A DNA stretch of 62,127 nt from a virus (lineage: Duplodnaviria; Caudoviricetes): positions 1 through 62,127 of IMG/VR virus record IMGVR_UViG_3300026911_000014, one strand, 5' to 3'. Of the stretch, positions 16,450 through 35,764 are shown one piece after another. How positions within the stretch are numbered: the stretch's first letter is position 1; every line of letters begins with the position of its first letter. The position numbers were made by a program, and so were the translations under genes. A model generated the notes under the pieces. It was not told the DNA's origin and ran no database searches. It saw only the letters and a program-made list of their open reading frames with translations.

Positions 16450-16458
16450 TCATTACAA

Positions 16459-16833
16459 ATGATAGCCAAACACGGAGACTATACCAATCAGTTCAACCAA
16501 GGAACAGGGAATGTTGCTGGTACGCTTGTATTAGACACATCGGGGTGGGATTATTGCATTATCCATTTGATTAATACGACAGGGACGGTTAACTTCCTTG
16601 GGTCGAACGATGGCGGCGCTATTCAGGGAGATGCGGAAGGTAATCCTGTATCTGCAACTAACTTTGTCGCTGTACAAGGCATTAATCAGTCCACGGGAAC
16701 TGCTGGGACATCCGGCGCAACAAATACGATTTATAAATTTTCATCTGTAGCAAGGTACCTTCAATTGGTGGGAACAGCATCCGCCTCTTGTAAAGTATTG
16801 GTGTATTTTGCTAAGATTTCGCAAACTATGTAA
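16459..16833 (+). CDS. Putative capsid decoration / beta-sandwich virion protein
   Basis: Gly/Thr-rich beta strands, FLGSNDG...ARYLQL pattern, head module position. Confidence 0.5.
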   Translation: MIAKHGDYTNQFNQGTGNVAGTLVLDTSGWDYCIIHLINTTGTVNFLGSNDGGAIQGDAEGNPVSATNFVAVQGINQSTGTAGTSGATNTIYKFSSVARYLQLVGTASASCKVLVYFAKISQTM

Positions 16834-16836
16834 TTT

Positions 16837-18018: not shown

Positions 18019-18049
18019 TGCTTTTATTTAACCAACAAACAAAAACAAA

Positions 18050-19489
18050 ATGGCAACAGGAATACCTGCGAGTAATATACTACAGCCCGGCCAAATTAGC
18101 ATTGCTAATGGTGCCAATCAGGCCCTAGTATCATTTCTCCAGCTTTTAACACCGCAGTACTACAAAGATTATGTAGAAAAATACGGTAATGAGGATTTTA
18201 CTTGGTGGCTGTCGACTTTCGGCGGCATGGAACAGGTTTATAACCAGAACTTCTTTTGGTTCGAAAACAGAGGCAAATTGATGCAGGGCGTTCAGGTCAC
18301 GACTAACGTTTCTGCGGCAGTTGGAGCCACAATCACATTGACATTAGCTGCTCAAGATCACTTTAATGGCGGCACACAAGCTCCTTTACGCGTAGGGGAA
18401 ACCGTTCGCGTAGCCTCTACCAATGTGGAAGGTGTTATTCAGACAATCAATTCTGGCACTCCGGGGGCATTTACGTTCACTGTAGCACCCAAACAGACTA
18501 CTCAGTCCTTGGCTTCCGCTGGTTCTACGTCTTTCTTAAATGGAGATGTATTGCTTTTTGGTGGTATTATGGATGCCGGTGAAGCATCTGGTAGCAATAA
18601 CCCTCTTATTCATCTGGATCAGAAGTATCAGAACAATATCACGCAGATGCGCGATACGTATGCTGCTACTGATTTGGCTGAAATGACACAGGTTTATTAC
18701 ACTGGTGGTGTAACGGGATCTGCTCCTGCACAGCAAGCGGGTACTTCCTTGTTTACCTATAAGGAATTGGTAAAGACCGATACTCGGTTCAAGAACTACG
18801 TGGAATTTAAACTCTTGCGTGGAGATATCCAGAATAATACGGCTATTGTCAATGCAAATGGGTATAGTTCTTTGGGTTCTCAGGGTCTTATTCCTAAGAT
18901 TGCTACAGACGGCGAAACGGTAGGGTATACTGCTGGTACTTTGGACATTCCCAAGCTCCATGAGATTACTCGTATCATGGACGTTAATGGATGTGCTAAG
19001 CAGTGTATGTGGCTTCAGGATATTTTCCAGCGTCAGGACTTCAGTGATGGGCTGTTTGCCACTTTCCCCGCTGGTGCTTTTGTGTGGGGAGAAGGAGAGA
19101 AATCAGAAGATGCGCAGGTGTCCTATGGATTCCAGCATATCAATATTGATGGTTACATGCTGGGCGTCAAGAAATACCGTCCGTTCAATTCCGAATTTAC
19201 TACCGGCACTACGCCTAACGTGGATTTCTTCCGTAACTATGGAATGATCATCCCGAATGGCACTGCACAGGATTACAAGGATGCAACAAAGGTTTATAAT
19301 AATCTTACTGTTATGTTCCAGCAGCCGCCCGCAGGTGGTACTTTGGGTAACGGGATTCGTGTATGGCAACATGGTGGTGGTTCTCGGAACCCAAGCGATG
19401 GCACAATGGTGGATTTCATTGAGTACATTACGTACCGGTCAATTCGCGTTGTAGCAGCCAATCAGTTCATTCAAGTAGAAGCAGCTTAG
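18050..19489 (+). CDS. Major capsid protein (HK97 fold, crAss-like)
   Basis: 479 aa, FFWFENRG and GSQGLIPKI motifs, strong leader, downstream hairpin. Confidence 0.85.
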   Translation: MATGIPASNILQPGQISIANGANQALVSFLQLLTPQYYKDYVEKYGNEDFTWWLSTFGGMEQVYNQNFFWFENRGKLMQGVQVTTNVSAAVGATITLTLAAQDHFNGGTQAPLRVGETVRVASTNVEGVIQTINSGTPGAFTFTVAPKQTTQSLASAGSTSFLNGDVLLFGGIMDAGEASGSNNPLIHLDQKYQNNITQMRDTYAATDLAEMTQVYYTGGVTGSAPAQQAGTSLFTYKELVKTDTRFKNYVEFKLLRGDIQNNTAIVNANGYSSLGSQGLIPKIATDGETVGYTAGTLDIPKLHEITRIMDVNGCAKQCMWLQDIFQRQDFSDGLFATFPAGAFVWGEGEKSEDAQVSYGFQHINIDGYMLGVKKYRPFNSEFTTGTTPNVDFFRNYGMIIPNGTAQDYKDATKVYNNLTVMFQQPPAGGTLGNGIRVWQHGGGSRNPSDGTMVDFIEYITYRSIRVVAANQFIQVEAA

Positions 19490-19497
19490 TTTTTAAT

Positions 19498-19529
19498 AGG
19501 GGCAGTATTTTGCTGCCCCTTCATTCTTT
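19498..19529 (+). terminator. Hairpin/terminator after the capsid gene
   Basis: aggggcagta-ttt-tgctgcccct with a weak T-tail. Confidence 0.6.
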
Positions 19530-19539
19530 AATAGTTTTT

Positions 19540-20412
19540 ATGGCAAAAGGAATTTCACAAGCGGATGCTTTTTTAGCGAACAAAGACGAAAAAATAACAG
19601 ATCCAGTCTTTAAGGAGATTTTAGCAAAACATAGCATCACTCCCGTAGGACGTAAATCAGTCATTTTCAAACTCAGAAATGCACCCAATGGGAAAGTCCA
19701 TCTGGATGGCATCGATGATGTATATGACGAAGAGACCAAAAAAATGAGGCGTATTCGGTTGCTTCGAGGCGTTGCTTCCATTTGGCAAGACGAGCAAGAT
19801 AAACTAGACAAAACCTATATTGATAAAAATAGAATTAGTCTAACCTTTGTTCAGGGTGGGATGATTTTAGATGAAATCAAAGATGCCAATATCATTAAAG
19901 CGGCTCGGTTGATGAATGCGAACGAAGGTAACTTGCATCGTCTCCCTGGAAAGAAGAGATCATTCTACGAATGGGACCCTATTGCTCAAGAAAGAGAAGC
20001 TTTCGAAAAAGAATTACTTGAAATAGAGGTAGTTGAGTTAGCTATGGCAACTCCCCTTGAAAAAGCTAAAAAACATGCTTTATTCTTAGGCGTACCAATT
20101 ACTGATGAAATGGGCACAATCCGTTCCGAACAAGGAATTAGGGTGTTGTATGTGAGGAAGGCAAAAGAAAATCCAAAACGGTTCAAAGAAACATTGGATA
20201 GCCCAGAGGTAGAAATTAAGCATCTTATTCGGAGAGCCTTATCCGATTCAAAAATAGAGTCAAGAGGAACAAATATTCAGTGGTCAGCCGGTGGCTTAAT
20301 TTGCAAATTGCCACATGGTAGAGAAGTAGTGGATTATCTAGTAGAATTTGCTATGCTCCCCACTGAAGAATCAAAATCATTTTTGGATCGCCTTGAAAAA
20401 GCAGCTATCTAA
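19540..20412 (+). CDS. Conserved protein encoded next to the capsid gene in crAss-like virion modules
   Basis: ATG at 19540; synteny; AKENPKRF motif. Confidence 0.6.
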   Translation: MAKGISQADAFLANKDEKITDPVFKEILAKHSITPVGRKSVIFKLRNAPNGKVHLDGIDDVYDEETKKMRRIRLLRGVASIWQDEQDKLDKTYIDKNRISLTFVQGGMILDEIKDANIIKAARLMNANEGNLHRLPGKKRSFYEWDPIAQEREAFEKELLEIEVVELAMATPLEKAKKHALFLGVPITDEMGTIRSEQGIRVLYVRKAKENPKRFKETLDSPEVEIKHLIRRALSDSKIESRGTNIQWSAGGLICKLPHGREVVDYLVEFAMLPTEESKSFLDRLEKAAI

Positions 20413-21081
20413 TTGAGCGTAGATACACTATATCAGTTGGTGGTTTACATCGCAAACCAGTTTCAGCGGGGAAATATTAGTCCTGCTAGATTTAATTTAA
20501 TTATTCAGCAAGCTAATATTTCATTCCTAGATTATCTGTTGGGGGAATTACAACAGTATAATTATGGGTCTCCGGCCTCTCGTATTCAATATGGTGTGAA
20601 TGAAACGGCTAGACAGCGACTGACACCTTGTATTGGCCCTCCCATTTCACTAACAGCTGATGTTACTGGTTTAGTGCCTTATCCTAGTGATTTTCAACAA
20701 GTGGACGCGATGTATACTCCAACATACCAACGTATACGATTTGTTCCACAACATAAGTTACCCAACTATCTAAGTGATCCCATTGACCCCGTTGCTACAA
20801 ATCCAATTTACATTTTAGAAGCAGCAGGATTTCAGTTCTTTCCTGCTACAATAGGAGACGTTCTAATCAGTTATGTTAAAACGCCTCCAACTATCTTTTG
20901 GAACTCAACACCAGATGCTAATGGTCGGCCAGTATATTCAGCCGCAGGGAGTACTGATCCTATTTGGTATGAGACAGACTGGCTAGAATTAGCAGCCCGC
21001 GCACTTAAGATGGTAGGAATAAATCTATCTGCTCCAGAAGTAGCACAATATGGAGATGGAATTCTTAAAGCAGGACAATAA
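20413..21081 (+). CDS. Head-tail ring / tail tubular protein
   Basis: QRGNISPARFN, ISYVKTP and ALKMVGINL motifs of podoviral ring proteins; synteny. Confidence 0.65.
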   Translation: MSVDTLYQLVVYIANQFQRGNISPARFNLIIQQANISFLDYLLGELQQYNYGSPASRIQYGVNETARQRLTPCIGPPISLTADVTGLVPYPSDFQQVDAMYTPTYQRIRFVPQHKLPNYLSDPIDPVATNPIYILEAAGFQFFPATIGDVLISYVKTPPTIFWNSTPDANGRPVYSAAGSTDPIWYETDWLELAARALKMVGINLSAPEVAQYGDGILKAGQ

Positions 21082-21713
21082 TGGCATCATTAACCAGATT
21101 AGAGCTTATTCGTCGTATTCTCCGGCAAGTATATGGAGGACAACCTTCCATCGATAGCAATATTACGGACAATCTCGTTAATGCTTGGTTGAATGATGCC
21201 TTTGCTGCTGCTGCCAAAAAGAACTATCTTGAAAATGATCAAATAGATGGTATTGGGTATGTTAATAACAGTTTTTATTTATCGATTAAGAATTTGGTTG
21301 TTGTTCCTTATGAGCCATTTTTATTCCAAATAACACTCCCTCAAGTTCCAGTTGGAATTAGTAATAATCAGGGTATTGGGACACTTCAATTCGTGGATAC
21401 AGATGGGAGTATATCTAATCCTGCCATTCCTCTTAGTGAAAATCAAGTAGGATATTTTCAAAATCTGAAACCTATTCCCAATAAGATATTATACTATCCA
21501 GAAGGTACGTTTTTATATGTTATTAGCGATTTGCAATTGGATAGTTATACAGCAAAAGTAAGAATGATATCAGCAGGCGATAGAACAGATTTAAGCAGTA
21601 CGGTTACAATTCCAGAAGATTATATGCCAGATATAATTGAATATGTTAAAAAACAATTGGCCTTTGAAAGACAGATGCCCAAAATCCCTACGGATGATGG
21701 CAGCGATAGTTAA
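21081..21713 (+). CDS. Tail ring / tubular protein
   Basis: Coupled to the previous gene; IPEDY C-terminal motif. Confidence 0.6.
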   Translation: MASLTRLELIRRILRQVYGGQPSIDSNITDNLVNAWLNDAFAAAAKKNYLENDQIDGIGYVNNSFYLSIKNLVVVPYEPFLFQITLPQVPVGISNNQGIGTLQFVDTDGSISNPAIPLSENQVGYFQNLKPIPNKILYYPEGTFLYVISDLQLDSYTAKVRMISAGDRTDLSSTVTIPEDYMPDIIEYVKKQLAFERQMPKIPTDDGSDS

Positions 21714-21731
21714 AATAAAATAATAAACAAT

Positions 21732-22262
21732 ATGGAAGAGTGGAGAGCAATCGAAGGATACGAAGGATTGTATGAAGTTAGCGACTTTGGTGAAGTGCGT
21801 TCATTGGATAAGGTTGTTAAGTGTAGATTTGAAAAATTTAGAACCAGACGCGGTAAAAATATGAAACAAAGCTTGACTGTTCATGGATATCCGTTTGTTG
21901 AATTATATAAAGATGGAGTTGGTAGATTCAAGACCGTTCACCGGTTAGTATTAGAGGCTTTCGTTGAAAATGGCGAACATCTTCCTTTTGTAAACCACAA
22001 AAACGGAATCAAAACAGACAATCGAGTAGAAAATTTGGAGTGGATATCCAAAGAAGGAAACGTAAGACATGCCTTTGAATCTGGACTTAAAGTGGCTCCC
22101 AAAGGAAGCAAGCATTACAAGTCAAAGAAAGTTATTAATATAGAAACAGGAACAACTTATGAATCATTAAAAGAGGCATCTTTAAAAGAAAATATCCCAT
22201 ACGGCACATTAAAGACAAGAATGATGCTTAGTCTAACTGTTAATAAACATAAATACATATGA
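21732..22262 (+). CDS. NUMOD4-HNH homing endonuclease
   Basis: EEWRAIEGYEGLYEVSDFGEVRS; VHRLV..AF; VNHKNGIKTDNRVENLEW. Confidence 0.92.
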   Translation: MEEWRAIEGYEGLYEVSDFGEVRSLDKVVKCRFEKFRTRRGKNMKQSLTVHGYPFVELYKDGVGRFKTVHRLVLEAFVENGEHLPFVNHKNGIKTDNRVENLEWISKEGNVRHAFESGLKVAPKGSKHYKSKKVINIETGTTYESLKEASLKENIPYGTLKTRMMLSLTVNKHKYI

Positions 22263-22525
22263 TAACCCCAATCCGTAACCAAGTTCTAATTAAGTTATTC
22301 AAAGGTGACGGCAAAAGCACAGGCGGCATTATTGTAGCCGATAGTTTTAAAACCGAATCCAACAAAGGAGAAGTGATTGCCGTTGGAGAAGGCCTTAAAG
22401 GAAGCCCAATGCAGTTTAAGAAAGGAGATATTGTTTTCCGAGTCCAAGACCACGGCACCCCTATTGAAGAAAATGGAGAGCGTTTCTATCTTATGGAGCA
22501 AGGGACTATTTTGGCAACTACTTAA
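22259..22525 (+). CDS. groES: Co-chaperonin GroES (Cpn10)
   Basis: PIRNQVLIK, STGGIIV, GEVIAVGEG, KGDIV and ILA motifs. Confidence 0.9.
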   Translation: MITPIRNQVLIKLFKGDGKSTGGIIVADSFKTESNKGEVIAVGEGLKGSPMQFKKGDIVFRVQDHGTPIEENGERFYLMEQGTILATT

Positions 22526-22535
22526 TTCTTATGGT

Positions 22536-23306
22536 ATGGCTAATCAAAGACAAGGCTGGGTAAGTTTAGAGGAATGCATTAACTTATACTTAGATCGTAG
22601 TGAACAGAGTAACCATAAATTCTATAAATTATGGAACATAGGATGTAGCGGATGTGAACAAATGGGGTTAAATTTCTTTTATCAAGTCCAAACGGTAAAA
22701 CTTCCAGTCAATTCCAATTATACCGTAAATCTGCCAGATAATTACATAAAGTGGGTAAAAGTGGGAGTGGGGAACTCAATTAGTGAAATTATCCCACTTG
22801 ACTATAACAATAAGCTAAATCTATTTGCTGATCTTCAGACGAATCGACTAGAGCAGACGCAAGATAGCAGTTTATTCAATTTCTATTTCGCCAACTCTTT
22901 TATATTCTATAATTATTGGAATGGAGAGTCTTTTGAAAATCTATATGGATTGCCTAGTGGAGGCCCATTCGTAGGTGGATTTAAAATAGACAATACGAAT
23001 AGTCTGATTGTACTCACTAACTATTTTCATTATCCTTATTGTTATTTAGAATACTTGGCTTCTCCTGCTGAAGGATCAACAATAAGATTGCCCATACAGT
23101 TTAAAGAAGCCATGATTTCCTTCTTAGGATGGCAAGACAATTATTACAAGCCTTCCAATTCCCATATGGCGCGCGGAGACAAAGAAAGCTTAAAGCATAA
23201 CTTTTACAACGAACGAAGATTAGCTAGAGCAGCCTATAAACCTTGGGAAATGGAAGAGGCGTACGAATTTAACCTTAAAAATCAGCGCCTGACTGTGAAG
23301 GCGTAA
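22536..23306 (+). CDS. Tail tubular / ring protein
   Basis: ATG at 22536; VNLPDNYIKWVKVG and LEYLA motifs; precedes the stabilisation protein. Confidence 0.6.
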   Translation: MANQRQGWVSLEECINLYLDRSEQSNHKFYKLWNIGCSGCEQMGLNFFYQVQTVKLPVNSNYTVNLPDNYIKWVKVGVGNSISEIIPLDYNNKLNLFADLQTNRLEQTQDSSLFNFYFANSFIFYNYWNGESFENLYGLPSGGPFVGGFKIDNTNSLIVLTNYFHYPYCYLEYLASPAEGSTIRLPIQFKEAMISFLGWQDNYYKPSNSHMARGDKESLKHNFYNERRLARAAYKPWEMEEAYEFNLKNQRLTVKA

Positions 23307-23311
23307 TACCG

Positions 23312-26300
23312 ATGATAGAAACATACCCTTTTGCTGGTCGTATGGATACGGATTCCCCTGATCTTGTATTTCCTAGGGGAAGCCACAGAAGTGCCTTTAA
23401 TGGAGTATTTAAGGGTACACAAGGGAATATGCAATTTCAAACTGCTCCTGGAACTACGCTTATTCCTAACTCATTTCTTCCTGATGTTGGCACTAACATG
23501 ACTATAGGATGTAAATATGATGCCGTAAAACAGCGTCTATTTATATTCAATGCTAATTCTGCTGGTAATAACGCTATTTTTATTTATTACACTGTACAAG
23601 GTAATTTTGTTAGATTAATACAAGATGGGGTAAACACATCAGATGCCCCATTAAGTTTCAATGCAGCACAACGAATAAATGGGGTATCTATATTATATGG
23701 CGATGGTCAAAGCGGGGATTTATTGTTTTTTGTAGATAGTCTTTTTCGTCCTAGAAAACTAAATATAGATCGTCTATTAAATAATGGATATTCTCCTATT
23801 AAAAGTGATTTTTTAAAGGTCATTAAGGCTCCTCCTGTGATGGTTCCGCAAGTAACTTATGAAAATGACTTTACCGTTACTGCAAATAATTTAATAAATT
23901 GTTTATGGCAATTTGCATATACATTTCTATACGATGATTATGAAGAAAGCGTTATTTCAAGTGCTTCCATAGTGCCCCTCCCCTCTGTTGCATTTGACAC
24001 TTCAAAAAACATTCCTGTTTCAGAAAGTGCAAGAATCGGGTGTTATCTGCAAACAGGAGATCAAAATGTTACTAAGATTAGGTTATATGGAAGACAAACC
24101 ACTAATGGAGGTAGTAGCGGGTGGCTGATCATAGACACACTTATAAAATCAGATCTATCGATACCCAATAATACGGTTTATAAATATCTTTTTTATAATA
24201 ATGGTAATTATATTGCTGTAGACCCCGCATTTGCTGTTGAATTATTTGACCTTGTTCCATTAAAAGCCAACGACCAAGCTCTCTTGGATGGTAATGTTAT
24301 TTCCTACGGAGCAATTACAGAAGGATATAATTACTTCACTCCAACCAATATTGGGTCTTCGATCCCGAATCAAATGGTGCCTGCTTATACCATTAATAGC
24401 GTTTTATTTTTTGGATCTTCTAATGGGCAATTTACAGGCGGCCAACCTCAATTTACTTTTTATTTGACAGGAGTGGGGCAAAATGATGGTTCAGGGAATG
24501 CTACAGATTTGGATTTGGCTCCAGCCAATTTGATTGTCGTTGCCAAGTCCGATGGAACTGATATAGGATTTACGCTTTCAAACACTAATAGAAATATAGC
24601 TACAGTCTTATTTAATTTAAGATCAAGCGCAGCGACTGCGGGATGGCAATTTGTATCATCTACCTCTAATTCATTGACAATATATTATCCATCAGGTAAT
24701 GTGGTTTTAGAGAATGCTCATTTATTTGGTGCTACTTCTGAAACGCAGCCTTATAATTTAGATCAATTTGCTCATTTTCCGCAAGCCAACTATCAGTATG
24801 GTATTGTTTACTTTGATGAAGATGGTCGCACAAATGGGGTAATAACCAACGCGCAGGCTCAGATTACCACTCCGGGATATGCTCCTAATGTTACTCAAAT
24901 TCCAGAAGTAACTATTCAGTTTGAATATACTCCTCCTGTATGGGCCACCTACTATAATTTGGTAAGAACCGATAATCTAACCTATCAGAAGTATTTGCAA
25001 TGGGTTTCTGCTTCCGCTTACGGCAACAATCTAGCAACTGAAGCACAACAATTTGGATATTTTGGGATTAGTAATATTCAGGATTATAATCTATCTATCA
25101 ATGCTACAACTAATGTAGTAAGCTACCAATTCTCTCCCGGCGATAGAATTCGTATTACAGCTAGATATGATGGAAGTGGTAATCTCGTTAATATATTAAA
25201 CTTAGACTATACTATTTTAGGAGTTGCCGTAAACCCTATCGTAAATGGTGTTCAACAAACTGGAAGCTTCGTACAAATTAGTTATCCTTCTGCGGACATT
25301 AATGGTAACTTCAAATTAGATGGGACGCCCAATTATCAGAATTATCAAATTTTACTTTATTCCTATAAAGCTCAAAATCCAACTGGACAAAATGTATTTT
25401 ATGAAATAGGGCAACGATTTGGTATAGGCAATCCGGGAACGCCAGCTGCCTACCATTTTGGTACCAATGAAGATAATGTATTGACTGTTACCGATGGAGA
25501 TGTATTTTACAGAACCAGAATAGTTCCAATTACGGCAGAATATACAGTACCCACAGGTAACTTTATACAAGGTTCATCCTACAGCACTATGTGGATTAAT
25601 CCGGGTGGGGGAGGAATTCCCATAGTAGACAATGGGCGGTATGCCATTCGCGGTAGCGTTAATAAAGTAGCTGGGTTAACAAATACTACATATCCAACAT
25701 TTTCAGATTCGGATTATGATATTTTGAATGAATCTGGATCTACCCTTACCGTACGAGTTAGGTATACTCTCAATGTTACAGATACAACAGATCCTAATGG
25801 GCAATTCCAAGGGTATATAAAAATTGCTGCACCTGGTAATGTAATTACTGTATATACAGTTCTTCCATTGCAAACTGGGTTAAAGGTAGGCGTAACAAAT
25901 ACTTATATTATAGATGCTACGGTTCCTCTTCCAGCAGGTGCTAAGATGTGGTTTGTTAATTTTGCTCAAAATCAAATGAGCATTGTGTCTTCTGCTATTA
26001 CGGTAGACTTCGTTACTAATATTACTTTAAATGTTTATGATTATTCCTATAGCGATATTTACGAATTAAAAACTAATGCGGATAATCGGCCAAATGTAGT
26101 TGATACAACAGCCCTTCAAACATATTTTAGCACCTTATTCAGATACAGTGAACCGTATCAATTAGGTGCTAATATAAATAATACTAATAGATTTTATGCG
26201 GTTAATTTTGATGAATTTGATAAATCGTATGGGGACATTATTAGGCTAATTGTAAGGCAAAGAGAAATGCGCGTCTTTCAAAAAAGGAGGTGCGGCAGAG

Positions 26301-27226
26301 TTGGGATTTACCAAAAATTCATTAAAAATAACGCTGGCAATACGGATTTAGTAGTTTCCGATACAATTATCACTCAAAATAATATTCAATATTTTGAAGG
26401 CGAATGGGGTATTGGCAATCAGTCATCTAGTCTTTCCAGTGCAGGATATGCAGATTATTTTGCAGACCCTGTTAAAGGGTACTTCTGTAGATTATCCTTA
26501 GATGGGATTGTTCCAATAAGTGAATTATATAAGTGTCAGACTTTCGCTGGTAGTAATCTCCCGAATTATTTAACTAACTATTTCTATGGATTTGGAGGTT
26601 TCGCATCCATTCTTTCAGTTTACAATGTACTACCAGATAGAGATAGCGAAATAATATTCTGTCTCCAAAGTGGAGGGCCTACTATTCCAGGAGGATCAGG
26701 GATACCCATGCAGGCTATTTCGTTTAACGAGACCATGAATGCATGGCAAAGTTTTTATGATTTTGCTCCAGATAGTATAGTGTGCTGTGAAAATCTATTG
26801 TATAGTTTTTGGAATGGGAATGTCTATACACATAATAGTACAAACTATGCCAATTATTATGGCGTGCAGCATCCAGTCAACATTAATCCTTTGTATATCT
26901 ATCCTGCCTTAGAAAAGAAGAACTTTTTGGCATTAACCCAAGTATGCTCCCAACCTTGGGAATCGCCAGAAATCTACACTAATACTAATTCTTATGGAAC
27001 CCAAAGGCAAGAAAGCAATTTAGTGGCGGCTGACTACGCTTTATTAGGTGCTGATTATCATGCTGGATTTTGGTTTGACCAACATTCACAAGCTGGATTG
27101 ATCGATGGAGACGTTCTGTCTGGGAACTTGCTATCGATTCTGTTTCAATTAGATGATCCGGCAGTTTTTGCGTATCTTTCAAATATTTCCATAAGTTGGA
27201 CAGAAAATAAAATGACCAATAAATGA
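23312..27226 (+). CDS. Tail stabilisation / nozzle protein (P22 gp10-like)
   Basis: 1304 aa beta-rich; GRMDTD N-terminus, PRKLNI, FDKSYGDI, RLSLDGIVPISE; podoviral synteny. Confidence 0.75.
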   Translation: MIETYPFAGRMDTDSPDLVFPRGSHRSAFNGVFKGTQGNMQFQTAPGTTLIPNSFLPDVGTNMTIGCKYDAVKQRLFIFNANSAGNNAIFIYYTVQGNFVRLIQDGVNTSDAPLSFNAAQRINGVSILYGDGQSGDLLFFVDSLFRPRKLNIDRLLNNGYSPIKSDFLKVIKAPPVMVPQVTYENDFTVTANNLINCLWQFAYTFLYDDYEESVISSASIVPLPSVAFDTSKNIPVSESARIGCYLQTGDQNVTKIRLYGRQTTNGGSSGWLIIDTLIKSDLSIPNNTVYKYLFYNNGNYIAVDPAFAVELFDLVPLKANDQALLDGNVISYGAITEGYNYFTPTNIGSSIPNQMVPAYTINSVLFFGSSNGQFTGGQPQFTFYLTGVGQNDGSGNATDLDLAPANLIVVAKSDGTDIGFTLSNTNRNIATVLFNLRSSAATAGWQFVSSTSNSLTIYYPSGNVVLENAHLFGATSETQPYNLDQFAHFPQANYQYGIVYFDEDGRTNGVITNAQAQITTPGYAPNVTQIPEVTIQFEYTPPVWATYYNLVRTDNLTYQKYLQWVSASAYGNNLATEAQQFGYFGISNIQDYNLSINATTNVVSYQFSPGDRIRITARYDGSGNLVNILNLDYTILGVAVNPIVNGVQQTGSFVQISYPSADINGNFKLDGTPNYQNYQILLYSYKAQNPTGQNVFYEIGQRFGIGNPGTPAAYHFGTNEDNVLTVTDGDVFYRTRIVPITAEYTVPTGNFIQGSSYSTMWINPGGGGIPIVDNGRYAIRGSVNKVAGLTNTTYPTFSDSDYDILNESGSTLTVRVRYTLNVTDTTDPNGQFQGYIKIAAPGNVITVYTVLPLQTGLKVGVTNTYIIDATVPLPAGAKMWFVNFAQNQMSIVSSAITVDFVTNITLNVYDYSYSDIYELKTNADNRPNVVDTTALQTYFSTLFRYSEPYQLGANINNTNRFYAVNFDEFDKSYGDIIRLIVRQREMRVFQKRRCGRVGIYQKFIKNNAGNTDLVVSDTIITQNNIQYFEGEWGIGNQSSSLSSAGYADYFADPVKGYFCRLSLDGIVPISELYKCQTFAGSNLPNYLTNYFYGFGGFASILSVYNVLPDRDSEIIFCLQSGGPTIPGGSGIPMQAISFNETMNAWQSFYDFAPDSIVCCENLLYSFWNGNVYTHNSTNYANYYGVQHPVNINPLYIYPALEKKNFLALTQVCSQPWESPEIYTNTNSYGTQRQESNLVAADYALLGADYHAGFWFDQHSQAGLIDGDVLSGNLLSILFQLDDPAVFAYLSNISISWTENKMTNK

Positions 27227-27657
27227 TCGTAAAAGATATTTCTGGGGATGAATTTAAAAAGGCCATTTCGATTGCTTTTTCAAACGACAGCCAAATATTG
27301 AGTCTTTATGATCCTAATGTTACCGTGGAATCGGTCGAAGAAATAGTGCAAGATATTATTAAAAAAGTAACCGAACATGGAAATGTTCAATGTAAGGGGA
27401 TATACGATAAAAATAAACTAGTTGGCTATTTTGTAAGAGGGGCCGGTATGTTGATTAGTTTTGGTCTATGCGTACAATATAGGGTTAGAAAGTATAAAAA
27501 GGAATTGTTTGCACTGATAAAGGAAGACTTTAAGGGGATGTTTGTGTGCTTCTTATGGTCAAAGAATGTAAGAGGAATCAGGTATTTGGAAAAGTGTGGG
27601 ATGAAGGTTATTCAAACAGATTACCAATTAACTAAATTGATTTACAATGCCCGCTAG
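27223..27657 (+). CDS. GNAT-like protein between tail and ejection genes
   Basis: KNVRGIRYLEKCG motif; position equivalent to T7 gp13 / P22 gp14. Confidence 0.55.
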   Translation: MIVKDISGDEFKKAISIAFSNDSQILSLYDPNVTVESVEEIVQDIIKKVTEHGNVQCKGIYDKNKLVGYFVRGAGMLISFGLCVQYRVRKYKKELFALIKEDFKGMFVCFLWSKNVRGIRYLEKCGMKVIQTDYQLTKLIYNAR

Positions 27658-28357
27658 CGCATCTGCAATACAAGCAATGGCTGGAAAGACACTCGATCAA
27701 TTAACGGGTGCTGGCCAATTTATAGGGGGTCTTATTGGGCGTGGAAGAAATCAAAAAAATCTGAACAATCTTCAAAACCCAACATATACCCCTAATAAAG
27801 CAATTTCAGACTATTATCAGCAAGCTCTTAATAAGGCTATGACAAGTGCCTATAATTCCAATTTCTATAATCAGGCAGAGACGAATGCAGGAAGAGGATT
27901 GGCGACAGGAATAAGTGCTTTAGGTGACCGTCGTTCTGGTGTTGCAGGGATTGGTGGATTAGTACAAGGCTCTCAAGATGCCTTAAATAAAGCTGGCGTC
28001 CAAGCGGAAGGCTTACAGCGACAAGCATTTGGACAACTTGGACAAGCCACACAAATGAAAGCAGGAGACGACCGATATGCTTTTGATATTAATCAAGAAG
28101 CCCCTTTTGAAAGAAAGTATTCCGAATTTTCTGGAAAATTAGCTGCTAATAACCAGCTTATCAATGCTGGGATACAAAATTTGAGCAATGGTCTTACGGG
28201 GGGAGGAGGTAATCCAGTTCCACAAGGATTGGGCGGTCTGGGATCAATGATAGGAAATCATTCTGCCTCGTTGCCCTATGCAACGTATAATCCTTCATTG
28301 GCTGCAACAAGTGGAGGATACACAAGTCCAGCTAGTAATTTCCCAACTATTCAATAA
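27647..28357 (+). CDS. Internal virion (DNA ejection) protein
   Basis: Gly/Ala/Gln-rich; first of three ejection-type genes. Confidence 0.65.
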   Translation: MPASASAIQAMAGKTLDQLTGAGQFIGGLIGRGRNQKNLNNLQNPTYTPNKAISDYYQQALNKAMTSAYNSNFYNQAETNAGRGLATGISALGDRRSGVAGIGGLVQGSQDALNKAGVQAEGLQRQAFGQLGQATQMKAGDDRYAFDINQEAPFERKYSEFSGKLAANNQLINAGIQNLSNGLTGGGGNPVPQGLGGLGSMIGNHSASLPYATYNPSLAATSGGYTSPASNFPTIQ

Positions 28358-28358
28358 A

Positions 28359-29831
28359 ATGGCTAGAAGGCATATATTTCAATCGAATCCTAACATGTGG
28401 AGCGCTGGTGCGGTGGTGTTGCCGCATCAACAAGCGCATGCTCAGTACGCCAATCAATTAGCGCTACATCAACAAGCTAAGGATCAAGCCCTGTCTCAAT
28501 ACTATGATAAGGTCCAAAGCTCAATAAATCCACAAGGTATTCGAGATGTAGATATGGATGGGTGGCAAAAAAAGGCTGATGAATGGAATAAATTCGGTAT
28601 AGAGAACAGGCAATTTCTAATTGATCCTAGGCGTGATGGAGGAAAAGCGTTGGGACAATTTAATTCTATGCATAGGGATCTTTTGGGAGATTTGGCTAAA
28701 TCGAAACAAGCTGCACAAACGGAATTACAGTTAAAAAACATTTGGCTAGACCCTAAAAAAAGGCAGTTATCTACAGCCAAGGATTTAGAAATGTCACACA
28801 GAATAGGATTACCAATTTATGATCAGAATCATTATAAGGACGGCATAGCAACTCCATTCGGGGCAGAAGATTTTTCGTTTAATGCCCCCCCCTTCGATTT
28901 ACCAAAGCAGAAAATGTTATTTCAGGAAGCGACAAGGGGGTTAAAAAAAGATAGGACGTATAACGAGAAACAAGGTAGCGTAAATACTGCATTACAAAGA
29001 ATATCAGTTCCATACTCTGAGAGATATTCTAATGAGAATCTTAAAGCGATAGCTGAAAGAGTTGGAGCGGCCTATGAAGGAGATCCGTCTATGCAATCCT
29101 ATTTTGAAAATACTATTCATGATCCCGAGCAATTTGAAAAATTAAATACGGCCTTTCAGTCTGTATATAAAGATAAAAATATAAGCAGTCCAAGAGATGC
29201 CGCTATGGCCTTTGGTATTTTAAATAACCAAGGAGTGAACGTGGGAGCCGAGGATAGAAAATGGTCACGACCTCCTGTTGGTAGATCCGGTGGAATGGCC
29301 GGGCAACAGTATAACGACATGATAAATTGGGTAAATGGAACCGCTAACGCAATTCAGAAGGGAGATGTATCAGAATTAAAGAGATACGGATCAGCACTTT
29401 ATCAAGGACCTGTAAAAACTACTCGGTATCAAGATGTAGATTTTGGGCCTTTTCAAGAGCAGTCTGATGTCAACAATTATACTGATCCAGATACCAAAAA
29501 TATTATTAACGGCAAAGTGGGGGAAGCTGGAAATATAAAACAAGGAGCGATTTTCTATCATAAGGATCATCAATGGAATCCTGATACAAGACAATGGGAA
29601 GATGTAATGAATAATACTAAATTCAGTAAAGATGATCCATATTTAAAGCAAAAACTAACTGGCTATTTTCAAACTCACTATGGCCCCATTAGAAAACTTA
29701 ACGCTACCCCATTCTATCAAAATCAGGGGCAAGAAGATACCGATCAACAGCCGCCTCCTACTGCGGTTAAGACCCCAGCTAACATTAAGGTAGACCCAGA
29801 TGCATTGTTAAAGAAATATGGCGTGAACTAA
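28359..29831 (+). CDS. Internal virion (DNA ejection) protein
   Basis: ATG at 28359; helical; synteny. Confidence 0.6.
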   Translation: MARRHIFQSNPNMWSAGAVVLPHQQAHAQYANQLALHQQAKDQALSQYYDKVQSSINPQGIRDVDMDGWQKKADEWNKFGIENRQFLIDPRRDGGKALGQFNSMHRDLLGDLAKSKQAAQTELQLKNIWLDPKKRQLSTAKDLEMSHRIGLPIYDQNHYKDGIATPFGAEDFSFNAPPFDLPKQKMLFQEATRGLKKDRTYNEKQGSVNTALQRISVPYSERYSNENLKAIAERVGAAYEGDPSMQSYFENTIHDPEQFEKLNTAFQSVYKDKNISSPRDAAMAFGILNNQGVNVGAEDRKWSRPPVGRSGGMAGQQYNDMINWVNGTANAIQKGDVSELKRYGSALYQGPVKTTRYQDVDFGPFQEQSDVNNYTDPDTKNIINGKVGEAGNIKQGAIFYHKDHQWNPDTRQWEDVMNNTKFSKDDPYLKQKLTGYFQTHYGPIRKLNATPFYQNQGQEDTDQQPPPTAVKTPANIKVDPDALLKKYGVN

Positions 29832-32800
29832 TGGCAGATAATGATACTATACAGGAGCCTCCAGAAGTAGATAACCAAGATCAAAAACTCCCAGACAATG
29901 GTCCGGGACCACAACAGCCTACTTTAAAGGATGAAGATAAACAGCGATTGGTAAAGATTATTACCAAGATGCAAAGCGCTGGAGAGTCGGATGATAATAT
30001 TAAGGCTGTAGTCAAGAGATTTCAGGAGATAAATGGAGCACCAACTAATTCATTGCCTTCCGTTGATAAATCAGTTAAATCAACTAGCCAAACACTTGAT
30101 CAACCTATTCAATTCAATGGTACATTTCAGCCTGATTTAGAGGGAGAGAAAAAGGGGCTATATTTGAATGACCCTCAGTATCAGCAACAAAAAAACGATT
30201 TTGTTGATAGGGTATTGACTGACCCTAAAGGAAGATTATTATATCCTGAGCAAGATCCAGCTACTGGCAAGTGGCAAAACTACTACACTAAAGAGCCTCT
30301 GCCTAACTTTGATCCACAGGAGATGCAAGGAAGAATTTTGCAAGTTCCGCATGCATATTTGTCCGCAACTGGTGGTAAGCAGTTTATAAGTCCAGTATAC
30401 GACAAAGAAACGAATTCCTACAAATTCCCAGGAGTTCAGACTCCCGATGTACCTACTATACAAACACTTCCTCAAGCTACTGTATATGTTAAAAAATGGG
30501 AAGAACCAGATAAAACGGCATATCAAGGTCCGACTAAGTTAATGGTGGATGAATCTGATAGCCAAAGAGGAGAATTAAGAGATGTTTTAAAAGAACACCC
30601 AGAATTAGATCAGCAAATTAAAGAAACCCTCAATAAATATGGTTCTCAATACGGCCATTCATTGCAAACTGGAAGTGGTTCAATGGCTAATGTCCTTCAA
30701 AAAACAGTAGAAGATCACTACGACTTAACTAAGCCGCTGCCTAAAACTATCGATCAGGAAGTATTAAATGGGCATCTTAATATCTTAAACAATTTCGATA
30801 CTAATCGACAAGAGTTCGAGGCTCGCCAAAGAGATTTACAGCATCAGGCTGATTTATTGACTGATAGAGCAAAGCGAACAGGGCAGCCAGTCTCTTCGGA
30901 AGATGCTGAACGGTTAGCTCAGAAAGCCTCCCAAAACATTAAAACGTGGCAAGAGTATGCTAAGTCAGTTCAATTCTCACAAAATTATGTGAATCAACCA
31001 GAAGTCCAAGATTATCTTACTCAATTCAAAAAGAGACAACAAGGCATACAACTATTGGATGAGATAAATCAACGGGCATTCCCCAATGAGGTTAAATCTC
31101 AAATTAAGCAAGATGAATATGATCGAAAAGCTATTGAAGGCAATTTGAATGCGTGGGACTATACAAAAAATACACTAGGCCGAGCATTTAGTGGTCTTTC
31201 TAATGTAGGCGAAACAGCACTTAAAATATTACCCGGAGTACTCACCGGAGGTGCTGTTAATTTTGATCCATCCTTTATTGAGAAGTTGAATAATAATGCG
31301 CAACAAGTAATAGCAAAACATTTGCCAACGATTTCGCAAGAAGGACTAGAGGAAATGACAAAGCATGGAATGGGACATACCATTAACGATCTTACAGGGA
31401 TGGTAGGAAGTTTTGCACCATATATTGTTCCCGGATTAGCAGAAGAGGGGCTAGGGGCTAAAGCGGCCACATTTGGAACGGCTCTTGCCGAATCCATGCC
31501 AGAAGCCCAAAGAGAAGCTGAAAAACAAGGATTAACAGGTTCGGCCTATAATATGTACGTAACGGCCAAACCATTGGTGAATGCCGCCTTTATGACGTTA
31601 TTGCCAAATGCCAAATTTGCCAAAGGGTTTGATAATGATGTGGCCAAAGCTGTAGTAAATGGTGAATTTAATAATCCTCGTGCAGCATTAATTAATCTAG
31701 CTAAAAAGGTAGCAACAGTACATCCTGGAGATGTGGCGCATTTGCAAGCCATGTTGTCTGGAACGGCACTAGGAAATGCTTTGGTTAATGGAATTACCAA
31801 TACACTTCAAAGTTCTCAGGATTTACAAAGAGGAATAGGGAGAAAAGAAGGACTTCCTGTAGAACTATCGGGCATCTTCAATCCAAGGCAAACCGTTATT
31901 ATGGCTATGGCTGGAAAATTATTGGAAGCCGTACCTACCCTGAAGAATTCGATAGGAGACTTGCAAAAAGGAAAAAACATTCAAGAGACCTATAACAATA
32001 TTGAAAATAACTTAGTTGAATTGGCTGGTCATAATTTAGAAGGAGTTAGCCAACAAGTACAGAAATTGTTGAAGAAAGATCCGGGAAACATATATGCCCA
32101 GCATTTAAAGAACACTTTAGAGGATTTTGCTCACGCAGAAGCCAGAATGCCAGAGGGATTAGAACCTGAGCAAAAAGCTGCTTTGTTCGGGGTACAGAAG
32201 CAAATCGAACAGAAAAAGAGACAAATGGCATATGCTGATCCAGCGTATGCTACTCACCTTCAAAAGAATATAGACGAATTAAATAAGCAAATTCCTGAAA
32301 TATTAAAGGACAATAAGAAGGCTCTTGATTACATGAAAGATGCCCATAAAGACTTTGCAGAATCAATTTTATCATCTAAAACAGAAAGCGATGAAGAAAC
32401 CAAAGCCGCTACAGATCCCGAAGCCGAAGGGCAGCAAGGGCAAATAAGCGAAAAACCAGTTGAAGGGGCAGCTATTAAAGGCGAGGAAGGTGGTGCTGCT
32501 CCTTCTCTTTCAGTTGAAAAAGATCCTAATTTTAGAACATTGGATTATGGTGATAACAAGGGTAAGGAAGAGAATGAGGAAGCCCAAGAAAAAATTAAAC
32601 AAGAGATTCTGAATGATGATAGGATAGGATCTAATGGGGAAAAATTTAGTGAATTTGTTGGTCGGGTAATCCCTGCAATGCAGTATGCAATGGAAAGTGA
32701 GCCACATAATACAGCCATTATAACTCACTCTTCCGTTATTAAAGCCCTTAGAGTATGGGAAGAAATGGGGCGTCCCGACAAAATTGAAGGGAGTAAATTA

Positions 32801-35764
32801 AAAGAATTTTCTCAGAGATATGTAGATTTGAAACCAGAAGCAGAAGGGAAGGTTCATACGTTCAAAGGGGATAATGGGAATGATATAAAAGTGGTTAGGC
32901 ATGGAGAGACAGAGGACAATAAACTTTCTGAATTTAGGCAAGATGACACCCAGCTAACCGAAAAAGGTAAAACGCAAGCAGAAAATGCTGGTAGTAATCT
33001 AATTAAAGAAACTAATGGCGAAGTGCCAAAAATAATTTCATCTGATTTGCCTAGAACACTTCACACATCTGATATTATTAATCAAAAGTTACTAGATCAT
33101 GTACGAAAGCAACCAACAGAGGAAGTACTTCAACGTGAACAAGAAGAAACTGGAAGCACAAGAGGTGAACGTGGACGAGTGGAATCAGGAGAGCAAGGGG
33201 ATGAATCTTCCAGAGAAAGTGGACAGTCCAGAAAGTCAGACAAAGAAGAAAGTAAAAGTGAGAGTAAAGAAGCAGATGTAAGCGACTTGCCTTTTATAGA
33301 CGAAGAAGGAGATGATGAATTTACTAGTACTCGTAATAAAGTTACAAGAGAAAAAGTAAAGGAAAGCGGGTTAAAGCCAGCAATGGAAGAAGCGGCCAGA
33401 GATTTTGGTACAGTATGGGAACAAGCAAAGAAAAAAATAGCCAAAGGGGAAAATATAGAAGGACTCATAGATAACCTTTCTAAAAAACCTAGGGCCGTTA
33501 CAGATTTGGAAAATGCCATGATTTTATGGCATCAAAATGTAAAAGAATCTCAATTAGCAGCGGCAAACAAGGATTTAAAAGAAGCAACTGAATCTGGTGA
33601 TGATGAAGCATGGAATAATGCACAGGATAGACGAGTTAAATTATTAGATGACCTTCAGAAAATCTATAATGTAGATAAGGCAATAGGACGTGAAACGGCT
33701 AGGGGGTTGAATGCCAGAAAAATGATAGCGGATAGACGGTTCTCTTTAATCAATATGCAGCTGGAGAAAAGTGCTGCGAATGGCGGCAAGGAACTCACAA
33801 CAGAACAACAATCCGAACTTCAGAAGCAATACGAGGATATTAAAAAGACGAAGGAGGCATATGAGGCAAAAATAGAGGAATTAACCAAACAAAATGCTAA
33901 ACTCGCTGCTGAGAGACAAATTGCTACCGAAAAGAAGGGAGTTTCAAGAAATAGAAAAACAAAGCAAGAATACAATACAGAACGAAAGGATATTTTAAAG
34001 AAAATGAGGGCAGATCTTTTAAAGGCCGCTAAGGGTGGCGAAGGATTAACTTCTTCAATTCCATTCGCCGCTCAATTAAAAGCGATTGCCCCTCACATAC
34101 CGGATTTAGTAAAGAGTTTCATTGAGGAGGGTATTGATAAGATAGAGGATATTACCAAGCACATAGTTGATTTGCTCAAACCAGATATTCCAGATATTGA
34201 AGAACGTCATGTACATGATTTAATATCAGGAGTTTACAATACCAAAGAAGAGCCAAAAGAACTCACAGATAAAGAGAAGGCTAGAAAGGGGAAAAATGAA
34301 AAAATAAGGAATGTAAAAAAAGAGGCTCAAATACAAAAATATAGAGTTACTGATCCGAAGTTGTTAAAAGCACAAGCTGATTATGAAAGAGCTAAGGATA
34401 AATACTTGCAAGGGCTAAAGGTTGATGAGAAAAAATCAAGATCTTTATTCCAAAAGACGCAAGATACATTCTTAAAATACGAGCGGTTTGCAAAATTATC
34501 GAATCCGATAACATTAGGCAAATTGACGGCTGCCGCTATCACAAGATTAGCAACTACGCCTATCGAAAGCGGAGTGGGAGCAGTATATTCTGCTGTATTA
34601 CCGGGAATAGCTAAAAAGGCTCCGGGAGAAGCCGGAATAAATGTTAATGCGGCTGCTAGAGGATATAGGGAGGCTTTCATGAAAGGATTATCGGATGCGG
34701 CCATTGTTGCCAAAGGGGGTAAAACAGATATTGAGGCCGTCTTTGGTAAAAAAGGACATCCGCCACCAGAGGCTATAGATTTCTTCGGTCAACTGCATAG
34801 CGCTATTAAAGCCCCTGTGAAGAGGTTTGCATTTGAGCGGTCATTCCAGAAAAGATTAGCTAATAATATTAAAAATGGAGTTGCCATAGATGGCATGACA
34901 GAAGCTCGGATTGCTATGGAAGCGTATAAAGATGCGGAAAGATCTATCTTCATGCAGGACAACCCGATTTCTAAAGGCTGGACAACAGCTATGAGTCAAT
35001 TGGAAAAGTCCGGGGAAACAGGCAAACTGGTAGCCACAATAGGGCAATGGCTAATTCCTTTCGTAAAAGTACCCACAAATATATTGGGCGAAACTCTTTC
35101 AAATGTTATTGGACCTGAAGTAGCCATTGGTAAGATTATAGCCACAAGCCTGGGTAAGGGATTAAAAAATCTATCTCAGGATGAGGCGGAAAGTATTATG
35201 CGAAACCTTAAAAAGGGAACTATTGGGCATGTAGCATTAATGGCTGGGTATCTTCATCCGGAAGTCTTTGGTGGATATTACCAGAAAGGAGAGAAGAGAA
35301 AACCGGGAGATGTTAAACCGGGAGATATTAAGATAGGAGATGTAACAATTCCTGCGTGGGTTACAGAAGCCCCCATCTTTCAAGCCATGCAAATTGGGGC
35401 TACAGTTCGTCGTGTAAAGGATTCCTTAGTTAAGGGGAAAGCGAAAGGATTGGGAGAAGGCATTTGGGGCGGCGCTTTAGGGTTAATGTCTCATGAACCA
35501 CTAATTGACGAGCCGTCCCGACTTACTGGAATGATGGCTAGTGCCAAAGAAAGAGAATATTTCCTAGGGGAATTAGCCAAGAGTACTTTAGTCCCAGCGG
35601 TATCCGAATATGCGGCTAAAGTATTGGACCCCGTTGATTCACGGCCTACACCTGAAAAGATGATAGAACCTGCTAATTTAAGACAACCTTCCACTATAGG
35701 AGAACATATAGAGAGCGCTATACCTGTATTGAGAGAGAATGTAGGTAAAAAGAAAAAGAAATGA
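29831..35764 (+). CDS. Large ejection / polyvalent protein with a histidine-phosphatase domain
   Basis: 1977 aa; contains RHGET, LTEKGKTQA, ISSDLPRT and ITHSSVI motifs; helical C-terminus with IPFVKVPTNI typical of ejection proteins. Confidence 0.75.
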   Translation: MADNDTIQEPPEVDNQDQKLPDNGPGPQQPTLKDEDKQRLVKIITKMQSAGESDDNIKAVVKRFQEINGAPTNSLPSVDKSVKSTSQTLDQPIQFNGTFQPDLEGEKKGLYLNDPQYQQQKNDFVDRVLTDPKGRLLYPEQDPATGKWQNYYTKEPLPNFDPQEMQGRILQVPHAYLSATGGKQFISPVYDKETNSYKFPGVQTPDVPTIQTLPQATVYVKKWEEPDKTAYQGPTKLMVDESDSQRGELRDVLKEHPELDQQIKETLNKYGSQYGHSLQTGSGSMANVLQKTVEDHYDLTKPLPKTIDQEVLNGHLNILNNFDTNRQEFEARQRDLQHQADLLTDRAKRTGQPVSSEDAERLAQKASQNIKTWQEYAKSVQFSQNYVNQPEVQDYLTQFKKRQQGIQLLDEINQRAFPNEVKSQIKQDEYDRKAIEGNLNAWDYTKNTLGRAFSGLSNVGETALKILPGVLTGGAVNFDPSFIEKLNNNAQQVIAKHLPTISQEGLEEMTKHGMGHTINDLTGMVGSFAPYIVPGLAEEGLGAKAATFGTALAESMPEAQREAEKQGLTGSAYNMYVTAKPLVNAAFMTLLPNAKFAKGFDNDVAKAVVNGEFNNPRAALINLAKKVATVHPGDVAHLQAMLSGTALGNALVNGITNTLQSSQDLQRGIGRKEGLPVELSGIFNPRQTVIMAMAGKLLEAVPTLKNSIGDLQKGKNIQETYNNIENNLVELAGHNLEGVSQQVQKLLKKDPGNIYAQHLKNTLEDFAHAEARMPEGLEPEQKAALFGVQKQIEQKKRQMAYADPAYATHLQKNIDELNKQIPEILKDNKKALDYMKDAHKDFAESILSSKTESDEETKAATDPEAEGQQGQISEKPVEGAAIKGEEGGAAPSLSVEKDPNFRTLDYGDNKGKEENEEAQEKIKQEILNDDRIGSNGEKFSEFVGRVIPAMQYAMESEPHNTAIITHSSVIKALRVWEEMGRPDKIEGSKLKEFSQRYVDLKPEAEGKVHTFKGDNGNDIKVVRHGETEDNKLSEFRQDDTQLTEKGKTQAENAGSNLIKETNGEVPKIISSDLPRTLHTSDIINQKLLDHVRKQPTEEVLQREQEETGSTRGERGRVESGEQGDESSRESGQSRKSDKEESKSESKEADVSDLPFIDEEGDDEFTSTRNKVTREKVKESGLKPAMEEAARDFGTVWEQAKKKIAKGENIEGLIDNLSKKPRAVTDLENAMILWHQNVKESQLAAANKDLKEATESGDDEAWNNAQDRRVKLLDDLQKIYNVDKAIGRETARGLNARKMIADRRFSLINMQLEKSAANGGKELTTEQQSELQKQYEDIKKTKEAYEAKIEELTKQNAKLAAERQIATEKKGVSRNRKTKQEYNTERKDILKKMRADLLKAAKGGEGLTSSIPFAAQLKAIAPHIPDLVKSFIEEGIDKIEDITKHIVDLLKPDIPDIEERHVHDLISGVYNTKEEPKELTDKEKARKGKNEKIRNVKKEAQIQKYRVTDPKLLKAQADYERAKDKYLQGLKVDEKKSRSLFQKTQDTFLKYERFAKLSNPITLGKLTAAAITRLATTPIESGVGAVYSAVLPGIAKKAPGEAGINVNAAARGYREAFMKGLSDAAIVAKGGKTDIEAVFGKKGHPPPEAIDFFGQLHSAIKAPVKRFAFERSFQKRLANNIKNGVAIDGMTEARIAMEAYKDAERSIFMQDNPISKGWTTAMSQLEKSGETGKLVATIGQWLIPFVKVPTNILGETLSNVIGPEVAIGKIIATSLGKGLKNLSQDEAESIMRNLKKGTIGHVALMAGYLHPEVFGGYYQKGEKRKPGDVKPGDIKIGDVTIPAWVTEAPIFQAMQIGATVRRVKDSLVKGKAKGLGEGIWGGALGLMSHEPLIDEPSRLTGMMASAKEREYFLGELAKSTLVPAVSEYAAKVLDPVDSRPTPEKMIEPANLRQPSTIGEHIESAIPVLRENVGKKKKK

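Follow-up and report, generated by a model that had tools for sequence, protein, structure and literature searches.

The 62,127-base window analysed here is the whole of a linear virus record (Caudoviricetes; IMG/VR record IMGVR_UViG_3300026911_000014), which is ~90% complete by estimate. On the plus strand, positions 29831..35764 (stop included) hold the open reading frame (ORF) of a giant mosaic protein of 1977 amino acids (aa), the ATG of which shares one base with the stop codon of the upstream ORF. The protein comprises three modules separated by linkers, and a family was recognised for one of them only, a histidine phosphatase in the middle of the chain. The N-terminal module (aa 1-840, 29831..32350) has no family match and is followed by linker 1, a low-complexity acidic segment (aa 841-894, 32351..32512). 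The phosphatase then begins with the half that forms the C-terminal part of canonical enzymes (aa 895-1012, 32513..32866); in this half T903 stands where canonical enzymes have Glu, and D905, G911, E937, R945 and H966, the second catalytic His (codon 32726-32728), are also located here. A GDNGND turn (aa 1013-1018, 32867..32884) joins what is normally the last strand directly to what is normally the first, and leads into the canonical N-terminal part (aa 1019-1090, 32885..33100), with R1023-H1024-G1025 (R1023 and H1024 encoded at 32897-32902), D1029, N1030, R1036 and R1075. Linker 2 (aa 1091-1165, 33101..33325) is again of low complexity and charged, with D, E, K, R, S, G and Q making up 80% of aa 1091-1160, and an all-helical C-terminal module (aa 1166-1977, 33326..35761) completes the protein. 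All of these parts lie on the plus strand. Neither RNA-polymerase-type D.DGD motifs nor hydrophobic membrane segments were found in the giant protein.

A preliminary description of the locus had proposed that this part of the protein is a circularly permuted histidine phosphatase, based on six motifs read in an unusual order. All six are present in frame 1 of 32516-33091 in the order claimed. Histidine phosphatases have a textbook fold, in which the RHG strand comes first and the second His late. When the whole protein was compared with the Pfam family His_Phos_1 (PF00300; E 3.8e-21, 76.1 bits), the profile matched in two separate stretches, as the permutation hypothesis had led one to look for. 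Scanned alone, the first half (aa 893-974) aligned with positions 69-155 of the 194-position profile (37.3 bits) and the second half (aa 1021-1087) with positions 3-67 (48.6 bits), each by itself exceeding the curated cut-off of 21.7 bits. The canonical order of elements is not found, since profile positions 69-155 precede positions 3-67, and the separate half scans place a clean cut point between positions 67 and 69. The PhoE sequence (1ebb/1h2e), retrieved in a PDB sequence search (E 0.0011), is swapped in the same way, since the later stretch pairs with PhoE residues 5-68 and the earlier stretch with residues 74-158, and the phosphatase was the sole match when the whole giant protein was searched with phmmer against PDB sequences. 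On sequence grounds, the swapped motif order lies far beyond chance. The stretch from aa ~893 to ~1092 is a branch-1 histidine phosphatase domain with its halves in swapped order, and the circular permutation that had been proposed is thereby borne out.

Structure prediction gave one compact domain with the canonical sandwich strands and helices. The AlphaFold2 model of aa 892-1092 (201 aa), computed from a 47-sequence alignment, has a mean predicted local distance difference test score (pLDDT) of 96.2, a predicted template modelling score (pTM) of 0.92 and no segment below 50. In the model, only a tight turn separates the old last strand (117-121) from the old first strand (127-132), and the predicted fold is the alpha/beta/alpha one of the superfamily. 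Among 48,161 PDB representative chains, the 16 best fold matches were all histidine phosphatases (Z 5.0-6.9; 103-121 residues aligned, ~60% of the model), including HFP (9mmh), iPSP1 (4ij5), PhoE (1h2e), CobC, fructose-2,6-bisphosphatase and dPGM. For each of these 16 chains, the model from residue 1 onward pairs with the chain from residue ~63-88 to its end, which should be the pattern expected when a sequential aligner meets a permuted chain. A Foldseek search of the model against the PDB returned no global match; the local match was bisphosphoglycerate mutase 2f90_A (66 columns, root-mean-square deviation 1.6, 35% identity), which from its length and identity we infer to correspond to the N-half. 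A ‘new fold’ reading of the absent global match was rejected, since a sequential aligner is expected to fail on a permuted chain.

The permuted arrangement is shared by a large family. A word-indexed search, limited to proteins of 1087-3460 aa, returned 63 proteins at E ≤ 0.001 (the window's own included), all of them co-linear with the query. An exhaustive search of 1.84 billion cluster representatives gave 460 matches at E ≤ 0.001, of which 156 reached E ≤ 1e-10 and 47 reached E ≤ 1e-30; with the best 150 of these 460, the proteins analysed numbered 186. Permuted order with both halves in one stretch was found in 165 of the 186. Typing with half-profiles (n=185) assigned 179 proteins to the C-then-N order and three to N-then-C, the remainder being one multi-domain canonical protein and two fragments. 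The same 185 proteins are mostly very long: 12 have fewer than 300 aa, 31 have 300-1000 aa, 121 have 1000-3000 aa and 21 have at least 3000 aa, so that 142 reach at least 1000 aa, and these giant carriers span 1000-5655 aa. At the other extreme stand free-standing members that start with Met and consist of the two halves alone (P0110, 192 aa; P0179, 199 aa; P0108, 213 aa; P0112, 219 aa), and the permuted unit is therefore self-sufficient. In P0057 an insert of ~178 aa sits exactly at the junction turn, and in P0016 one of ~107 aa lies in a variable loop near aa 986.

A tblastn search of 72,556 plasmids gave one match, of the N-half alone, to an ordinary histidine phosphatase. Prokaryotes, each species represented by a single genome, were covered by a pattern scan that reaches close relatives only; it gave 11 loci, none with both halves. 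The single-protein scan of IMG/VR gave four loci. The permuted family comprises at least 156 clusters (50% identity) at E ≤ 1e-10 and is nearly confined to giant proteins of uncultivated phages.

The preliminary description had further claimed that the phospho-accepting His, both Arg residues and the second His are kept, and this holds across the family. In the 165 permuted domains, R1023, H1024 and R1075 are conserved in all 165, R945 in 163, G911 and R1036 in 162 each, H966 in 158, D1029 in 155 and N1030 in 154, with position 937 being Glu in 151 and Asp in 13. The catalytic quartet R1023, H1024, R1075 and H966 and the pocket Asn N1030 make up the set described for the superfamily in passages of a study of Aquifex HFP, in which the corresponding residues are R8, H9, R58, H149 and N15, and E82, which overlays the Glu of PhoE, is the likely proton donor (PMC12051542). 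Judged from these residues, the domain is probably catalytically active.

Three of the 185 proteins (P0141, P0149 and P0170) carry the phosphatase in normal order, and their halves match the window domain at E 1e-7 to 1e-14. P0141 and P0149 display the full signature of the clade: T-W-D-L-G in place of L-x-E, RHGETEDN...R, GESFN and THSSV. P0170 shares T-W-D, but M and H stand in place of D1029 and R1036. Since P0141 and P0149 combine normal order with the Thr signature, the change from Glu to Thr is not a consequence of the permutation. In these two proteins a NUDIX hydrolase is fused to the normal-order His_Phos_1 domain, and a dedicated search gave these two only; the fusion is a weak hint at nucleotide-derived substrates. 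P0147, a protein with canonical domains, has Glu at the T903 position and W, T or A at the D1029 position of its domains, and T903, D1029 and R1036 are therefore markers of the clade. The architecture of P0147 (1161 aa) is odd: a class-I aminoacyl-tRNA synthetase region (tRNA-synt_1, E 1.6e-74) at the N-terminus is joined to a tandem array of four normal-order His_Phos_1 domains (E 9.9e-126).

Trees were built from 73 of the 165 permuted domains (<55% mutual identity), three rows in canonical order and one outgroup domain. In the free trees the normal-order rows are nested among the permuted ones. A tree that groups all 73 permuted rows scores 15.08 log-likelihood units higher, with a p-value of 0.714 in the approximately unbiased test (p-AU), and a single origin of the permutation is therefore not rejected. 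The trees were meant to test repeated permutation, or a flip back to canonical order, and we make no claim for either.

The giant protein around the phosphatase is a mosaic. Mean identity to the window protein among 17 full-length homologues is 0.67 for the phosphatase, 0.47 for the N-terminal module, 0.41 for the C-terminal module and 0.29 for each linker, and by these figures the phosphatase domain is under clear purifying selection. When the three parts were compared by BLAST with the 185 relatives, the N-terminal module was found in 17 and the C-terminal module in 33, each independently of the other. Thus P0004, P0007, P0012 and P0015 share the N-terminal module and the phosphatase at 67-76% identity and continue into an unrelated C-terminal region, whereas P0022, P0035 and P0065 combine the phosphatase with the C-terminal module and lack the N-terminal one. 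The C-terminal module stands at the C-terminal end in 33 of 33 carriers. Since the outer modules are exchanged around a phosphatase that is kept, the latter behaves as a retained cassette in a shuffled protein.

Other domain partners are found among the relatives. Kinase-PolyVal occurs in six of the 185 by a local iterated search. Pfam, applied to 45 relatives, finds it in P0064, P0097 and P0131, together with a Zeta-toxin-type P-loop kinase in P0079, AAA_30 in P0111, DUF5856 in P0082 and DnaJ in P0155 (above the cut-off) and P0134 (just below it). Within the C-terminal module, aa 1564-1890 (window 34520-35500) contain nine residues that are invariant across 29 aligned relatives (K1564, E1600, H1656, K1660, F1707, N1750, G1799, G1806 and P1890); several of these are polar and may mark a functional site.

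The gene of the giant protein closes a block of virion genes on the plus strand (10956..29831), which comprises a terminase (10956-13016; phrog_6681), a portal protein (13712-16162; phrog_6547), several members of ‘virion structural protein’ families, among them a 1304-aa structural protein (23312-27226) just upstream of the giant gene, and three small ORFs. For the terminase and the 1304-aa protein, the relatives found are all distant (23-30% identity) and belong to podophages that infect Flavobacterium, Cellulophaga, Tenacibaculum and Maribacter, and no match was obtained when the portal, capsid-like and 1304-aa proteins were searched with phmmer against PDB sequences. Gene order is the same in Flavobacterium phage elemoF, where terminase, portal and structural protein genes are followed by the gene of a 1493-aa virion structural protein, three small genes and, as the positional counterpart of the giant gene, that of a 3694-aa ‘structural protein’. 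Two IMG/VR contigs (L001 and L002) are fully syntenic with the window.

The predicted fold of the C-terminal module points in the same direction as the gene order. Its AlphaFold2 model is almost all helical (pLDDT 75, pTM 0.68). Foldseek found nothing significant for it in the PDB, where a pre-ejectosome chain of cyanophage A4 (9k3a_A) reached only E 1.6, and 39 matches at E ≤ 0.001 in BFVD. The names of these matches include PolyVal ADP-ribosyltransferase, ART-PolyVal-like, LPD3, MuF C-terminal domain protein, nuclease and ‘Internal virion protein’. The last of these names is borne by models from the T7-like Synechococcus phages S-CBP3, S-RIP1 and S-CBP2 (E 8.3e-5 to 5e-4) and from a Pelagibacter phage (5.3e-3), with template modelling (TM) scores of 0.28-0.34. 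An Atlas feature search gave leads only, LPD38 for the C-terminal module and LPD14 and LPD22 for the N-terminal one. Gene order and predicted fold similarity support the view that the host protein of the phosphatase would be an internal virion protein of the polyvalent type, and the earlier designation as an ejection protein is plausible on the same two grounds. Polyvalent proteins are interpreted in the main text of Iyer et al. (2017; PMC5512222) as being injected with the DNA, and the giant protein is likewise probably packaged and delivered into the host.

Several features of the surrounding structural region deserve mention in their own right. Within the structural block, an HNH endonuclease ORF (21732-22262; phrog_59, E 2.9e-41) lies between a ring-like protein and the next virion structural gene. 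A weak match to crAss tail ring protein 2 (21081-21713; PF25702, E 1.4e-4, 22 bits against a 27-bit cut-off) hints at a crAss-like tail. Downstream of the giant gene, a block of ~5 kb (36715-41789) between genes for 317-aa and 166-aa proteins is absent from both L001 and L002. It contains an IS1595-family transposase ORF (40112-41101; DDE_Tnp_IS1595, E 2e-33, and a zinc ribbon) and six further ORFs with no Pfam or PHROG match, three of them on the minus strand, and looks like a mobile insertion in the structural region. An Ig-domain protein (42290-43156) precedes a 1645-aa protein (43158-48095) whose aa 899-1054 match a GDSL lipase/acylhydrolase domain (Pfam E 1.4e-18); this protein is a possible esterase-bearing tail fibre. 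The tail region also encodes a 563-aa protein (48897-50588) that has RCC1-like repeats together with a PKD-like domain.

Among known enzymes, the window domain is closest to the group of PhoE from Geobacillus stearothermophilus (1EBB, 1H2E), with which it shares its best PDB sequence match and, for the group as a whole, the best fold matches (Z 6.8-6.9). The named members of this group are CobC, iPSP1 and Aquifex HFP (9MMH), the last of which has the same quartet and pocket Asn in the passages cited above (PMC12051542). The window domain differs from them in several ways: its two halves trade places at PhoE residues ~68/74, Thr stands in for the Glu donor (E82 in HFP), D1029 and R1036 are additional near-invariant residues, and it is embedded in a 1977-aa phage protein whereas PhoE is a free enzyme. 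SixA, which acts on phospho-histidine, has to our knowledge no clear Glu donor. It belongs to the same superfamily and has a small core, named as the minimal core fold in part of the HFP study (PMC12051542), but its chain order is normal and it is absent among the listed matches of the window domain. The giant protein as a whole resembles the polyvalent proteins, which are likewise giant, built of exchangeable modules and encoded among virion genes according to the main text of Iyer et al. (PMC5512222); the Kinase-PolyVal partners of some relatives and the likeness of the C-terminal module to models named PolyVal ART, LPD3 and MuF-C extend the comparison. T4 Alt and the N4 virion RNA polymerase, cited in the same text (PMC5512222), are precedents for head-packaged enzymes that are injected with the DNA, although their folds and activities are unrelated to those of the window domain.

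Full-text literature searches, whose coverage leaves most subscription journals outside, found no published circular permutation of a histidine phosphatase. Nothing relevant was among the matches listed for phage or crAss-like literature on histidine phosphatase or phosphoglycerate mutase, and the main text of PMC5512222 contains none of the terms ‘phosphoglycerate’, ‘histidine phosph’ and ‘permut’.

Collectively, our results suggest, with a probability of roughly 0.7, that the window, from an uncultivated podophage of the Bacteroidota type, encodes a permuted phosphatase module with a complete pocket within a mosaic internal virion protein of the polyvalent type, and that this module is probably active and delivered. 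Its chain starts at the normal third strand, proceeds to the normal C-terminus, passes through the GDNGND hairpin into the normal first strand with RHG, and ends once the helix behind the second catalytic Arg is complete. It is a self-contained module between the two low-complexity linkers. Because the phosphate pocket (R1023, H1024, N1030, R1075, H966) is complete, hydrolysis of a phosphoryl group through a phospho-histidine intermediate on H1024 as the nucleophile would be the most likely reaction. With Thr in place of the Glu general acid, and with D1029 and R1036 near-invariant specifically in this clade, the leaving-group chemistry, and thus the substrate, probably differs from that of PhoE-type enzymes. 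Packaged in the virion and delivered with the DNA, as gene order and the fold of the C-terminal module would suggest, the enzyme may act early in infection.

A number of observations weigh against this interpretation. The fold-search Z values (5.0-6.9) are all below 8, a range that the tool calls common, and count only because the top 16 belong to one family. No cultured carrier was found among 50,697 GenBank phage records, either by megablast of the ORF or by tblastn with the domain or the whole protein as query. No Pfam polyvalent-protein domain was detected in the giant protein, which is a difference from the polyvalent proteins of Iyer et al., and the similarity of its C-terminal module to internal virion models has low TM scores (0.2-0.4), comes from a model with a pLDDT of 75 and relies on names that are annotations, not experiments. 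A further objection concerns catalysis. The preliminary description had equated the L.E..G motif with DPNFRTLDYGDNKG; the stretch is present, but the Glu proton donor of the L-x-E-x-x-x-G motif is not kept, the PhoE Glu aligning to T903. Of the 165 domains, 139 have T in this column, 19 have A and two have S, and D905, two residues further on, is not a strict acid either (D 118, N 31, E 8 of 165). The domain could accordingly be a pseudo-enzyme that, lacking the Glu general acid, binds a phosphorylated ligand or protein as a sponge or an anchor, or serves as a structural spacer, and the retention of Glu by the canonical P0147 domains would fit such a loss of function. However, a pure binder would have no need of the nucleophilic His, which together with both Arg residues is invariant and is accompanied by the second His in 158 of 165 domains, and the phosphatase is the most conserved part of the protein. 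Proton-donor residues differ among histidine phosphatase families in passages of PMC12051542, and donor-less histidine phosphatases can be active: in parts of a report on branch 2, the donor position of MINPP is occupied by Ala, and the E991A exchange in Vip1 raises activity on the pyrophosphate substrate of that enzyme (PMC11836120). By analogy with this precedent, the missing Glu need not mean an inactive domain, and we consider a pseudo-enzyme improbable.

The arrangement could also be a leftover of tandem domains, the tail of one normal-order domain followed by the head of the next, given that permutations usually arise by duplication and subsequent loss of the outer halves. Pfam matches did overrun the N-half in four relatives (P0102, P0097, P0124 and P0082); half-profiles built from the 165 family members find no extra half there (best E 0.66), which leaves a C-N-C intermediate in these proteins unsupported. 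In the window protein, the same half-profiles detect a single C-half, at aa 895-1012, a single N-half, at aa 1018-1087, and no extra half-copy in the 1977 aa, even when filtering was turned off and E values of up to 100 were admitted. Low-complexity linkers make up the flanks, free-standing members of 192 aa have no room for more, and the stretch is predicted to fold as one compact domain with a pTM of 0.92. A single domain, as the preliminary description had held, accounts for all of these results, and tandem remnants are extremely improbable. Nor do we favour, as an unlikely case, a phosphatase that is active but not injected, working instead in the producing cell, late or during assembly, while tethered to a structural protein. 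The gene does lie in the late structural block, and the free-standing members of 192-219 aa need no packaging. Against this stand the giant carriers with flexible linkers, which are the rule (142 of 185 with at least 1000 aa), the resemblance of the C-terminal module to models named internal virion or polyvalent proteins, and the published view, in the main text of PMC5512222, that polyvalent proteins are delivered with the DNA.

If the preferred interpretation of a delivered and active permuted phosphatase holds, a bolder and rather doubtful extension of it is that this clade gave up the Glu and gained an Arg and an Asp in the pocket in order to act on phosphoryl groups with good leaving groups and, arriving with the DNA, erases a phosphorylation signal of the host at the very start of infection. 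Candidates for such substrates would be the phospho-His or phospho-Asp of host two-component or phosphotransferase system (PTS) proteins, and pyrophosphate-bearing nucleotides such as alarmones and defence signals. Nucleotide signals, phosphoproteins and a role against host defence had also been put forward in the preliminary description, as putative targets and a putative function of an injected phosphatase. Were this proposal true, the family would represent a widespread and previously unrecognised class of injected phage counter-signalling enzyme.

For enzymologists, the change from Glu to Thr is a natural system in which to examine how catalysis might proceed when the canonical proton donor is missing. 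The conservation of the phosphatase amid the swapping of its neighbouring modules points to a common, uncharacterised activity carried in phage particles, and once its substrate is found, the few enzymes that phages deliver together with their DNA would come to include a phosphatase.

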